Source of the DNA: Pseudogymnoascus verrucosus
Lineage: Eukaryota
NCBI GenBank assembly: GCA_001662655.1
Contig: KV460242.1
Direction: 5' to 3' (one strand)
Length of the DNA stretch: 64,000 nt
In this document: positions 511 to 3,844 of the stretch, piece by piece
Position numbering within the stretch: position 1 is the stretch's first letter
How the letters are laid out: each line of letters begins with the position of its first letter
Made by a program: the position numbers and the translations under genes
Notes under the pieces: generated by a model
Database searches by the model: none
Seen by the model: only the letters and a program-made list of their open reading frames with translations
What the model was told of the DNA's origin: nothing

Positions 511-1747
511 ATGTCTCGCAAGCTTGACACGCCAGAACGAACTCCATTATCTAGAAACGTCTACATCTACGACAACGATGGTCATATTCTCGGCGGTAAG
601 TTCCTCTTCCAATTATTTCTGAAGAGTTAGAAGTTGATGTCTTTTATATAAGGTGTATATCAAAACGGCTCACTTACGAATTTAAACCTGCATGAGATGT
701 GTGACATCATTATAATTGCATCTGAGCCGTTTTCTCTATTTCGCCTGAACAAAGACGGATCTACGGGCGCGAAGGTGGCTAAGAATAGAGAAAATCTATT
801 AGCTGGATCATACATTGTTCTCACAAACGGTTAGTATTAACGATGAGAGTGTATAAATATCCAATGAACCTATGTAGATGGGGAACCGAACTCAGTCCGG
901 ATCACGAATGAAAGCACCCTAAGGCGTATAATAACAAAGATTCCATCATCAAAGTTAACTCCAACGGTAAGCAATTCACGTATACTTTACTTCATGCTTA
1001 GTCGATAGTCGAGAGATTGTTGTCGTCGACATGATGTTGTCGCGACGTGCTATTGCCGTTCCCATCTATGGACTCCCGCTAATTATGGGCGTAGCAAAAG
1101 CGTTTCCGAGACCGAGTCAGGGAGCGAGACGACCGGCACTGTGTGATGAGCGGCCTTCGAACCTTCCCCGATGAAGATTACTCACTTTTCCATGCTACAC
1201 ACATATTCCCATACTCACGTGAGCAAGCCTGGGTGGACGAAGGCCTCTCGAGATGGATCACAGATCAAGCTTCCCCTCAGAGCCAAGGAGTGTCAAAGAT
1301 ACACTCAGTTCAGAACGGATTGCTGCTTGACTTGAATTGCCAAGCTGCGTTTGATGCACACGCAGTTACAGTAGATGCCAATGTGCGAGATCTAAAATGC
1401 GATAGAATAAGTTACTAACACTACTATAGGATGGGTACAAGATCATCTATTTACACAAAGATGTATTGAATCTAGATGGTCGCACATTAGATCTATCGTG
1501 CAGGGATCCGCAGAGCCCAGACCGAGTCCCCGACGAGCTCTTTCACTGGCAGTTTCGCCAAGCCATTCTAGCTATAGTGAGGGGCAATGGACAAAGAATA
1601 TGGAATATGCAGCTTGAGGAGGAGGATCCCATGGGAGATATAATGGATGGGCTGGATGCTGCGGAGAGAATGGAAGCAGAATTGTTCACTCGTCTTGGGG
1701 CAGGCGAGATTGATTACAGCGCCGCTCCAGAAATGCACTCGCCTTGA
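511..1747 (+). CDS. Fungal HNH-endonuclease-domain protein (HNH_2-like), paralogue A; 5 exons; terminal metal-binding His replaced by Gln
   Basis: ATG at 511 (MSRKLDTPERTPLSRNVYIYDNDGHILGG); GT-AG introns at ~596-652, ~830-878, 967-1094 and 1383-1429 join to give FRDRVRERDDRHCVMSG...FHATHIFP...IHSVQNGLLLDLNCQAAFD...RVPDELFHWQFRQAILAIVRG, typical of fungal HNH_2 proteins. Confidence 0.85.
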
Positions 1748-2045
1748 TTTGCTTTTATATATTATAAAAATAGCTGAACTGAATCCTCCATTTTAATATT
1801 TAGCGTATGGGTTATCATTCAATCATGGCATTTATCATTCCCACGGAGCAAATCACAAACCTAGTGACAGAATGAAGCTCGAGATTGAATGTCTATTTCT
1901 ATTCACGAGCACAACTCAGTATATAGATCACAGCGTAGGTTTCCCGTACCCCCTTATTGTAAGATAAACATACCCGTGCATCACTAAAATACTTGCCACC
2001 TACGAAAAAACGTTGCTCTACATAAAACTCAAGAAACTAATCAAC

Positions 2046-2358
2046 ATGGGGAACACCGGCAGCATACCTGGTGATGCCAGGAGACGCAACGGCATCATCG
2101 ATGCTATGAGTGAGTACCACCGCGACAAAGCGGCTAAATACCAGAACCAAATCCAGCCGGGCACAGGGTTTGGAAACTGGGTGGATAGGAGGTAAGTTAT
2201 ATAACTGTTCAAAGATTCATTTTTATTTTTATTTTCGAAATAGCAAACCTGACATTGAAAATAGGGGTATGGGACAGTATTACCAGAACATGCATAATCA
2301 GTACAAGGTTCAGTATCATACTGGCGAAAAGAACATGTGGAGTAGCTGGCGAACCTGA
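2046..2358 (+). CDS. Small spliced orphan protein (79 aa) with N-terminal MGNTGS myristoylation-type motif
   Basis: ATG 2046; exon 1 2046-2191; intron 2192-2264 (GTAAGT donor, CTGAC branch point, TAG acceptor); exon 2 2265-2358 continues in frame (RGMGQYYQNMHNQYKVQYHTGEKNMWSSWRT*). Total 240 nt. Confidence 0.6.
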
Positions 2359-2439
2359 TGCTTCGCAGAAGTTATGAGGGAGAGACGCTGGCTGGTTCTG
2401 GCGTTGGTTGCACACCACACACTGTATAATAGGGGCAGC

Positions 2440-2698
2440 GAGATTTTATCATGGAGCCTAGATATGACTTCGCACTAAAATACATTGCAGGTATTGATTT
2501 TAAAGCCTTGGGTATTGATAAAATGTGTCCCAATCATAGCATTGTTCGTAATCAGAGCTTGGCATATGTATCAAGTCCACAAAATAATGTTATATTCTCT
2601 TACATTTCACAACTACGAGGCCTGTTGTTGCACCTTCCACGTAGCGCAGCGTGCTCACGGTAAATATCATAGCGGAAAGTCTGCTTCAAATTGGATGC
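2440..2698 (-). pseudogene. Relic copy of the 3' end and downstream flank of the neighbouring beta-lactamase-family gene (direct repeat of ~4068-4312)
   Basis: Minus strand 2698->2645 reads ASNLKQTFRYDIYREHAA versus AADLKQTFRHDIYRKHAA in the intact gene; the non-coding flank also aligns by eye (caggtattgattttaaagccttgggtattgataaaatgtgtcccaatcat vs caagtattcacttaaaagccctggatattaatagaacatgtcctaatcat). Confidence 0.85.
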
Positions 2699-2703
2699 TG
2701 CTA

Positions 2704-3844
2704 CTAGCCGAACTCCCCAGGCCCGAGACGGGTGAACAACTCTGCTTCCATCCTCTCCACTGCATCTGGTCCTTCCCGTATCTCCTGCATTATGTCCCCC
2801 CCTTCAGAATAGTGCATGTCCCATGGTTTTTCTCCAGCACCTTTCATACTAGCAAGGATAGCCTCGCGATGATGCCAGCGCAAGAGCTCATCAGGAACTC
2901 GAAGGGGGTTCTGTGGGTCTCTGCAGCATAATGCCAGTCTGCGACCGTCCACATTTACATGATCTCGGGTCAAGCAAACGACCTTATATCCTTCCTATTA
3001 TAAGTAGTATCAGCATCTTGTTCTTGTTAAAATGGTTCAGGACTTCTTACGTCGACATTAACTGTAAGTGCATATGCATCAAACGACGAGTGGATGTGAT
3101 CCCTTAGGAGCAATCCATTCTGGACAGAATGAATTTTGGTATCATTTTCCCGTGCAGGGTGCTCCTCATCAGTTATGAACCTTGCCATTCCTTTTTCAAC
3201 CCAGGTCCTTTCGCGGGCGAACGGAAAGATATGGCAGGTGCTGAATGATGTGGGAGCTTCATCTTTAGGATGCTGTGTTCCGGATATTACGCATTGGTCG
3301 TCTCGGGCAATGACCCGATCATGGAAAGATTTTGTCTGCACTTATAATTAGCATAGTATCGTCAAATAAAACGTATATAGCTTGTACGTACTCGCGAATT
3401 CAACTTCATTGACTGGCCCTTTATCGTTATGCGCCTCTGCGCAGAGTCGGGCGTGATTTCGACTGGGATCGGGCTCCCATCTGTAGAATAATTAGACATC
3501 TATAGTACATTCATTTGTAAGATTTATACATACTGGCCGACAGAACAACGTATGATCCATCTCGCAGAGCGTTTCTATTTGGGAATAGTTTTGCGCCTGT
3601 AGAGCCGTCCTTGGTGAGGCGGAAAAGAGTGAATTCCTCATTTGTAATGAAGACTCTGCACATTTCATAAAACATTGAATTTATGATGCATCCATTCTGC
3701 CAAAGCCCTTATACAGAGCAGTCAGCTTCTAATAGTTAAGAGGAATCAAATGAAGAACTTACCGCCGATAACTTGGCCGTCATCATCGTAAATGTGAACA
3801 TTGCGCGGAGAGCTTGGGGTTGGTATGTCCAGCTCACGGGGCAT
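2704..3844 (-). CDS. Fungal HNH-endonuclease-domain protein (HNH_2-like), paralogue B; 5 exons; intact H-N-H
   Basis: ATG at 3844 (MPRELDIPTPSSPRNVHIYDDDGQVIGG|LWQNG...); FHDRVIARDDQCVISG...TCHIFP...IHSVQNGLLLRDHIHSSFD...RVPDELLRWHHREAILASMKGAGE; intron positions match paralogue A. Confidence 0.88.

Follow-up and report, generated by a model that had tools for sequence, protein, structure and literature searches.

Two Convergent DUF7881-HNH_2 Genes in Pseudogymnoascus verrucosus, Members of an Expanded and Probably Conflict-Type Fungal Nuclease Family

The stretch of DNA analyzed here (the window) consists of 64,000 nucleotides of contig KV460242.1 of the fungus Pseudogymnoascus verrucosus (GenBank assembly GCA_001662655.1). 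Its first 5.5 kb carry four genes: two convergent paralogs, called A and B below, a short gene, C, which lies between them, and lac, a gene of the beta-lactamase/esterase family. A and B belong to a known but uncharacterized family, in which the domain DUF7881 is followed by a nuclease domain of the HNH_2 type. The reading we prefer, to which we give an even chance of being right, is that A and B act independently within a family that has expanded and is probably of the conflict type, that A is weakened or non-catalytic, and that B came later to an unstable slot. A would be the older resident copy, in whose lineage the canonical metal-ligand His would have been lost early, and its nuclease half, now under weaker constraint, would be that of a weakened or non-catalytic paralog. 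B, or the slot it occupies, would have arrived later beside lac, duplicating about 250 nt of the 3' end of lac in the process, and its fast-changing ubiquitin-like domain might set either the binding target or the control of the B nuclease. The proximity of the two genes would reflect a tendency of family copies to pile up adjacently, and we infer that the layout can be accounted for without any coupling between A, B, and C.

There is nothing special about the pair as such, and its value is that of a well-resolved example of an uncharacterized family which is multicopy in many ascomycete genomes. A putative ubiquitin-like fold can be assigned to DUF7881, the members of the family were found to cluster and to lose catalytic residues repeatedly, Gln being the most frequent replacement, and one slot in Pseudogymnoascus turns over far faster than its neighbors. 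The known fungal conflict genes are mostly of the pore-forming, NLR, and kinase types. If the family is a conflict system (homing, allorecognition, or cell death), a nuclease-based class would be added to them; if it is not, the locus would be a case of plain paralog birth and decay.

Organization of the Locus and Gene Models

The features on which the analysis is based are as follows, positions being those of the window.

511-595, 653-829, 878-966, 1095-1382, and 1430-1747 (stop included), plus strand: exons of gene A, 318 aa, sequence-based model
1341-1343, plus strand: codon CAA of Q200 of A, at the third (metal-ligand) His position of the HNH motif
3844-3763, 3707-3534, 3480-3392, 3335-3051, and 2994-2704 (stop included), minus strand: exons of gene B, 306 aa
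2046-2191 and 2265-2358, plus strand: exons of gene C, 79 aa, starting with MGNTGS, between A and B
5457-4240, minus strand: lac, beta-lactamase/esterase-family gene directly upstream of B, 405 aa, Pfam PF00144, protein P0301
2441-2700, minus strand: relic of the 3' end of lac, about 80% column identity to 4069-4315, with which it forms a direct repeat
320-346, plus strand: 27-nt element about 165 nt before the ATG of A
4000-4026, minus strand: copy of the 27-nt element about 156 nt before the ATG of B, inverted with respect to the copy of A

The four introns of A and the four introns of B, all eight of which are of the GT..AG type, interrupt homologous codons (after codons 28, 87, 117, and 213 in A and 27, 85, 115, and 210 in B) in the same phases (1, 1, 0, and 0), and the convergent paralogs with matching introns described in an earlier note on this DNA, which was made from the sequence alone, were thus confirmed. 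The same is true of the otherwise intact frame that the note had attributed to A, which consists of five open exons with canonical splice sites over 318 codons, and of the spliced gene of 79 aa that it had placed between the two copies, the model of C being identical to the database protein P0294 (VE01_07943). The model of B is letter for letter the database protein P0274 (VE01_07944, P. verrucosus). Because of these identities, the models of B and C are backed by independent annotation. In the case of A, the last 184 aa of the model are those of P0282 (VE01_07942), the RefSeq protein, which is 184 aa long, starts within exon 4 at Met135, and lacks three exons that are open, have canonical splice sites, and code for the ubiquitin-like domain (region 511-1140). 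These exons were left out in four of the five annotations of A, including the RefSeq annotation of P. verrucosus. In two other strains, the A ortholog is annotated with a fused N-terminus resembling a signal peptide (MKFS...), which has no match in the window.

The HNH exon (1095-1382 in A, 3335-3051 in B) is located between two phase-0 introns, and skipping it therefore preserves the reading frame. It is skipped in the gene models of two relatives (P0160 and P0158), where the exon could be damaged or an HNH-less isoform could be produced.

Domain Architecture, Fold, and Catalytic Residues

In both A and B, DUF7881 (PF25324) is followed by HNH_2 (PF13391) and then by a conserved C-terminal helical part, which carries near-invariant motifs across the family alignment. 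The search with HNH_2 that the earlier note had proposed gave a match in both genes: at a Pfam gathering cut-off of 21 bits, exon 4 alone scored 48.5 bits in A and 57.9 bits in B, and full-length B scored 54.9 bits. As regards DUF7881 (cut-off 27 bits), the scores amounted to 38.8 bits with exon 2 of A alone and 42.2 bits with full-length B, while exon 2 of B alone scored 26.1 bits, barely below the cut-off. Both Pfam models were matched by 111 of the 121 aligned family members. The catalytic triad of B is intact (H150, encoded by CAT at 3233-3231; N188; and H197, encoded by CAC at 3092-3090), whereas that of A reads H153, N191, and Q200 (CAA), which makes A an HNH_2 member by its sequence that lacks the canonical triad. 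The motifs and codons had been given correctly in the earlier note, which reported three HNH residues in B and a Gln at the last His of A.

The AlphaFold model of B, for which 121 family sequences were used, had a pLDDT of 85.8 and a pTM of 0.84 and showed two domains. In a fold search, the HNH part (residues 112-264) matched the modification-dependent restriction enzymes TagI (6ghs_A: Z 11.5, rmsd 4.2, 119 residues aligned) and VcaM4I (6yex_A: Z 10.2, rmsd 3.0, 115 residues aligned) best, and the same two enzymes occupied the top ranks in Foldseek, none of the matches there reaching an E-value of 0.001. They differ from the present proteins in that their sequence identity to B is 16-20% and in that A and B carry a ubiquitin-like domain instead of the N-terminal SRA/PUA-type domain by which TagI and VcaM4I read modified bases. 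A profile search of the PDB sequences gave nothing significant, the only matches being to doublesex at chance level (E 0.1). We infer that B is probably an active metal-dependent DNA nuclease.

The DUF7881 part of the model (residues 11-90 approximately) matched dozens of ubiquitin, SUMO, UBX, PB1, and Ras-binding-domain chains with Z-scores of 5.6-7.0. Since these matches are consistent across the whole domain, a ubiquitin-like beta-grasp domain is the best reading of DUF7881 that the model allows.

Two known types of protein resemble this build. Crinkler effectors carry a signal peptide and a motif of the LxLFLAK type, and Zhang et al. are said to have described in 2016 the toxin domain of those known as CR-HNH; the comparison of the latter with A and B is based on listings. 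Their build is the same, a ubiquitin-fold header preceding an HNH_2-type nuclease, the likeness being one of fold only (Z 5.6-7.0). The CR-HNH toxin domain appears as HNH_2 group 38 in Table 1 of a survey of His-Me finger proteins (PMC5714182), and the header is placed in the Pfam Ubiquitin clan in a further publication (PMC9815663). Membership of the Crinklers by sequence was rejected, none of the 121 family members matching Pfam PF20147 at E-values of up to 1. A translocation motif of the LxLFLAK type was also considered and dropped, since the corresponding local stretch, FTLFRLTK, is not conserved in the family consensus. By inspection rather than by means of a predictor, the N-termini MSRKLD and MPRELD do not resemble signal peptides.

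The second type is that of CAD and its inhibitor ICAD (DFF40/DFF45). In CAD, a nuclease of the beta-beta-alpha-metal type follows a beta-grasp-like CIDE-N domain, and the inhibitor, which has the latter domain in common with the nuclease, holds it by this means. This is the closest known analog of a nuclease paired with an impaired relative, with the difference that a nuclease-like domain is present in A and absent from ICAD. Among the 50 rows of the fold search listed for B, no chain of CIDE-N or DFF40 occurred. DFF40 is classified as His-Me group 35 in the survey table mentioned above (PMC5714182).

Distribution and Clustering of the Family

The family is spread through the Ascomycota, its members are about 300 aa long, and it is multicopy in some genomes. 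The best 120 of the 202 matches include proteins of Lipomyces (many times), Zopfia, Trichophyton, Histoplasma, Blastomyces, Morchella, Tuber, and lichen fungi. The proteins of Lipomyces, Zopfia, Trichophyton, Histoplasma, and Tuber that combine DUF7881 and HNH_2 have the same domains in the same order, the same length, and the same C-terminal motifs as A and B. Members are labeled "HNH endonuclease-domain-containing protein" in the databases. A full-text literature search yielded no publication on the DUF7881-HNH_2 family, and the part of the His-Me finger survey dealing with HNH_2 group 6 merely counts 120 fungal proteins (PMC5714182).

Copies of the family tend to lie next to each other. More than one copy was present in 23 of the 75 metagenome loci, or 22 of the 48 loci with a length of at least 8 kb, the maximum being five copies; after near-identical loci had been merged, the loci of at least 8 kb formed 29 groups, 14 of which were multicopy. 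An intact copy and a copy with Gln at the third position (Q-type) occurred together in 3 of these 14 groups, which is about the frequency to be expected from the share of Q-type copies (about a fifth), according to a rough estimate made without any computed test. Same-strand arrays of three to five copies in 10-20 kb were observed in L060 (five copies), L032 and L025 (four each), L021, and L030, and the triads are mixed within these arrays (H-N-H, H-N-Q, N-N-H, and Y-N-H/Q). Locus L049 carries a Y-N-Q copy and an H-N-H copy in convergent orientation, about 4.5 kb apart.

The neighbors of the family copies were surveyed using the longest non-overlapping open reading frames (ORFs) of the 29 group representatives. 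Housekeeping genes were found among the neighbors, as were, in several loci, reverse transcriptases, a DDE transposase, and proteins of the NACHT/TPR and ankyrin/GPIID_WHD types, and no recurrent partner gene was detected, the neighbors being heterogeneous (87 of the 298 candidate ORFs were scanned). The patchy distribution of the family, its arrays, the repeated loss of the active site, and the presence of some transposon- or NLR-type neighbors suggest that this family is probably of a conflict type (selfish, defensive, or involved in self/non-self recognition) rather than a housekeeping one.

Gln at the Third HNH Position and the Fate of A

The Gln of A is a property of its whole lineage: it was found at the third position in all four of the proteins that include the HNH exon (the A of the window, P0280, P0281, and P0001). 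The orthologs thus keep Gln and not His, and A is a long-retained copy rather than a case of strain-specific decay. The A clade consists of the sequence of the window and those of three other species. In its sister clade, which is present in three further genomes, the third position is occupied by Arg and full frames of 318 aa have been kept.

The same replacement recurs elsewhere in the family. Among 153 aligned rows (150 cluster representatives plus A, B, and P0001), the triad was H-N-H in 112 and the third residue was Gln in 12, and the corresponding numbers among the 111 HNH fragments from the 75 metagenome loci were 64 and 25. On a FastTree phylogeny of 245 long rows, the third residue was His in 199 cases, Gln in 27, Arg in 8, Tyr in 4, and another residue in 4, and the minimum number of changes at this position was 16, six of them between Q and not-Q. 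Judging from these alignments, the H-N-Q variant has arisen repeatedly, at least about six times, Gln being the commonest replacement. The fact that the Gln lineages are few but large on the 245-row tree suggests that they probably persist. The first His was lost in 5 of the 27 rows with Gln at the third position vs. 9 of 199 (raw p 0.016), and phylogenetically independent pairs, of which there were few, gave no signal of such a link (median p 1).

The replacement of His by Gln is no proof of a dead or impaired enzyme, because R.KpnI, an active HNH restriction enzyme with the active site D148-H149-Q175, uses Gln as a metal ligand (PMC3834813). The earlier note had called A a retained and probably impaired copy: its retention is supported by the four orthologs with Gln, and the Gln alone does not establish its impairment. 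Like KpnI, A has Gln at the site where His or Asn is usual, and its H-N-Q triad could work likewise. Unlike A, KpnI has an Asp beside the general-base His as a second ligand; Thr is present at this place in A, and Ala in the family consensus, the comparison having been made by motif only.

Compared with one close relative, the HNH and C-terminal half differed at 14 of 201 residues in A vs. 3 of 191 in B (Fisher p 0.011), the nuclease half of A changing about four times faster than that of B. This difference is also what would be expected if A were simply a dying copy, useless since the loss of its metal-ligand His and slowly decaying, with its intact frame as a leftover. We regard this as unlikely. 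In its favor, one A ortholog has additionally lost the first, general-base His (replaced by Tyr) and a conserved Cys (replaced by Ser), one gene model skips the HNH exon, the ubiquitin-like exons are missing from most annotations of A, as described above, and 9 of the 12 differences in exons 1-3 of A change the amino acid (among the 40 of 688 rows listed). What speaks against decay is that in the window all five exons have remained open and retain canonical splice sites and that the Gln itself has been kept in all four orthologs with the HNH exon. The HNH and C-terminal half is also open, and 87-93% identical, in four other genomes, and 4 of the 6 differences in exon 4 are silent (again among the 40 of 688 rows listed). 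The Arg-type sister clade with its full-length frames and the Q-type lineages elsewhere, which persist and diversify (27 rows, about six origins), point in the same direction.

Origin of the Pair

A and B are identical at 161 of 304 aligned positions (53%); dN amounts to 0.37, and dS, at 2.6, is saturated. The 17 Pseudogymnoascus copies in a tree of 30 rows all fell into a single clade (100/99), an expansion at the level of the genus, and within this clade A grouped with the Arg-type clade and B with the other genes of the B slot. A recent local inverted duplication was therefore rejected, dS being saturated and the two genes belonging to different sub-clades. The arms of the inverted repeat between A and B consist only of the diverged coding regions and the 27-nt element.

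This element is identical at 26 of 27 bases upstream of A and upstream of B and has two matches in the window, where none were expected. It is followed in both cases by a second short block (TAATTCCT.TG) common to the two genes. Outside the window, its 14-nt core had no match in the 75 metagenome loci. The resemblance suggests either common regulation or a small conversion tract.

Linkage of A, B, and C and Turnover of the B Slot

In the three genomes in which both A and B were found (24MN13, P. verrucosus, and 03VT05), these genes are two locus tags apart with C between them. The contigs of three related organisms are collinear with positions 1-5933 of the window at about 95% identity, so much of this linkage is plain synteny. 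The stable parts of the locus are A, C, and lac: between species, the proteins differ by 3-7% in the case of lac (four other species), 6-11% in that of C, and 3-13% in that of A. The intact nuclease gene B, on the other hand, lies in a slot subject to turnover. The gene in this slot differs from the B of the window by 6% in 24MN13 and F-103 and by 22% in 05NY08; in 03VT05 it is cut to 180 aa and about a third of it is different, and in 23342-1-I1 the difference is about 39% and the gene model lacks the HNH exon. In F-4519, no gene is annotated in the slot, and the locus tags of A, C, and lac are consecutive. In a contig with about 80% identity, part of the HNH exon of A, C, and lac are present, and 322 other letters replace 1937 nt that include B and the relic. 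Within B itself, the ubiquitin-like part differed at 14 of 114 residues from that of the close relative used above, vs. 3 of 191 in the other half of the protein. No case of B without A was seen, although the presence of A could not be read in two B-bearing genomes (05NY08 and F-103); A and C without B were seen.

The earlier note had proposed that related genomes be examined for co-occurrence of the genes and for presence/absence variation. As to the former, A and B are linked in all three genomes that have both, and A and C persist where B is missing or unannotated; as to the latter, the B slot is hypervariable and sometimes empty. Hypervariable and sometimes empty slots are found in many conflict loci, and this resemblance is circumstantial evidence in favor of the idea put forward in the earlier note, namely that of a poison/antidote, decoy, or regulated cell-death module.

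In such a module, a dangerous nuclease, B, would be held in check or given its specificity by A, by C, or by both, through their ubiquitin-like or HNH domains, and the whole could function in the manner of CAD/ICAD, as a unit of poison/antidote, regulated cell death, or allorecognition. We consider this rather doubtful. It would account for the fixation of Gln in the A lineage, for the 27-nt element common to A and B, for the linkage of the three genes, and for the fact that C adjoins a family member in nine genomes. The occurrence of A and C without B, together with the lack of any case of the reverse, is the pattern expected of an antidote and its toxin, and the hypervariable slot, the fast ubiquitin-like domain of B, and the coexistence of intact and Q-type copies in some multicopy metagenome groups would fit as well. 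Adjacency is generic in the family, however, with multicopy groups accounting for 14 of 29, intact copies accompany Q-type ones no more often than the share of the latter roughly predicts, and C has no relative next to family members outside the genus. The linkage itself was observed among genomes differing by about 5% in their DNA, in which it is expected from synteny alone, and A may not be dead at all, given that Gln can serve as a metal ligand in KpnI (Q175). The idea that A, B, and C act together was consequently left unsupported, and independent family members in a cluster remain the reading we prefer. As far as computation reached, none of the findings that the earlier note had named as grounds for abandoning its idea (A orthologs that usually keep His, or genes unlinked in relatives) refuted it.

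Gene C

C is 89-94% identical among the four full-length orthologs of 79 aa compared and is spliced in the same way in all of them, which supports its being a coding gene. Its start, MGNTGS, presumably fits the N-myristoylation pattern. It adjoins a family member in all nine Pseudogymnoascus genomes in which its position is readable, either from locus tags or from a fused gene model; in two of the nine, the neighbor belongs to another sub-clade and has an intact triad, and one of these gene models is fused to C on the same strand. C matches no Pfam family, and sequence searches gave no relative outside Pseudogymnoascus. Nor was it detected beside family members elsewhere, tblastn giving nothing better than an E-value of 4.7 in the 75 metagenome loci, and the ESM Atlas contained no usable match. 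When the complex of B, residues 135-318 of A, and C was predicted with C as the scored partner and without controls, the scores were 0.00 and 0.30, the mark being 0.34, which speaks neither for nor against contact.

The relatives of C (P0297, P0291, and P0298) vary by in-frame events. One strain shows an in-frame tandem duplication of nine residues (DARRRNGII), an assembled form of 56 aa has lost, in frame, the stretch between two YQN motifs that comprises the intron and the codons on either side of it, and one gene model reads on into the intron.

The Direct Repeat Flanking B

A direct repeat of about 250 nt brackets B, one copy (4069-4315) being the true end of lac and the other (2441-2700) the relic. 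The repeat contains the last 25 codons or so of lac along with the 3' untranslated region, the relic abuts the stop codon of B, and lac, B, and the relic (2700-2441) are all on the minus strand. B ends with GEFG in this strain and in one relative, whereas other B-type proteins are eight residues longer (...SPEVTS.), and at the junction between B and the relic about 71 extra letters are present in the contigs of two related organisms; a small deletion has therefore trimmed the tail of B in the window. At the protein level and across five strains, between 1 and 5 of the 25-29 residues in the short tail of lac differ, compared with 10-27 of about 379 in its body.

The order of a full-length lac gene, B, and a 3' fragment of lac on the same strand matches the model described for the WHO elements of Torulaspora and Lachancea (PMC7282813), where a host gene is likewise followed by a nuclease gene and a 3' fragment of the host gene, whose frame may be interrupted, and where filled and empty forms exist. 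It might accordingly be proposed that B is or was a homing element of this kind, which cuts B-less lac alleles near their 3' end, repair then copying B together with a resistant 3' end and pushing the old 3' end downstream as a relic. We think this improbable. B-less haplotypes do exist, the family members occupying the slot vary widely between species, and arrays and frequent catalytic loss would be in line with the fate of homing nucleases after fixation. According to the same source, however, the WHO nucleases are intein-like LAGLIDADG-zinc-finger proteins, whereas B is of the HNH_2 type; their targets show 85% identity in the 3' part against 99% elsewhere, a contrast not clearly seen in lac; and their clusters hold several fragments, where the locus studied here has one (PMC7282813). 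The last 25-30 residues of lac are not clearly more diverged than the body, the tail being short, and the locus contains a single relic and a single element. No HNH_2 nuclear homing element turned up in the publications consulted, no search aimed at such elements having been made.

Nor are flanking direct repeats a trait of the family. They were found at 18 of 84 copies, vs. 2 of 84 in the case of inverted repeats. Single-copy loci nevertheless had them in 3 of 36 cases (2 of 25 groups), which is not above the frequency in control intervals (10 of 128), and the 15 of 48 array copies that had them can be attributed to tandem duplication. The idea of such a trait was therefore rejected, with the proviso that the screen was insensitive, having missed the repeat of the window itself because of masking and thresholds. 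In L075, a single family copy lies between direct repeats of about 190 nt (5840-6025 and 7080-7260), which abut both ends of the gene, have about 86-87% identity over the 119 nt aligned by BLAST, and do not evidently involve the end of a host gene; the situation in L071 is similar.

The repeat beside B may equally well be a duplication, B-less forms having arisen from recombination between its copies. If a duplication formed at the time of insertion and some strains later lost B when the repeats recombined, the data would be accounted for just as well. A bolder possibility, which we consider quite unlikely, is that the slot beside lac is the battleground of a new nuclear selfish or self/non-self element based on a ubiquitin-like-HNH nuclease: B-type genes would enter it, bringing or generating a spare 3' end of lac in the manner of WHO elements, diversify fast, and be lost, A and perhaps C would blunt them, and the family would be the fungal counterpart of homing or toxin-antidote nucleases.

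Points Weighing Against the Preferred Reading

Several observations do not sit easily with the view that A and B are independent members of the family and have to be set against it. The 27-nt element has been kept between A and B although the silent sites of the two genes are saturated, which hints at common regulation and is more in keeping with a functional pair than with a chance one. The fact that C adjoins a family member in nine genomes could mean that a real two-gene module exists within the genus. The divergence of 22-39% in the B slot, at loci where lac differs by 5-7%, is not explained by calling B an ordinary paralog. Given the shorter annotations, the true product of A may be unlike the predicted protein of 318 aa. 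The Z-scores of about 6-7 that point to a ubiquitin-like domain fall in the range where the fold tool warns of merely common arrangements. Finally, the metagenome loci come mostly from one sample series, and the array counts are not independent even after de-replication.

Other Features of the Window

The rest of the window is ordinary chromosome, with genes for an importin-9, a HORMA protein, BUD3, a P450, and two myosin-chitin synthases. The latter are divergently transcribed (40191-45692 on the minus strand and 50068-55346 on the plus strand) and carry the domains Myosin_head, Cyt-b5, Chitin_synth_2, and DEK_C; we take this head-to-head arrangement to be the usual one in filamentous fungi, and hence ordinary. 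In the region upstream of lac, a 26-nt unit is perfectly duplicated in tandem at positions 6063-6114.

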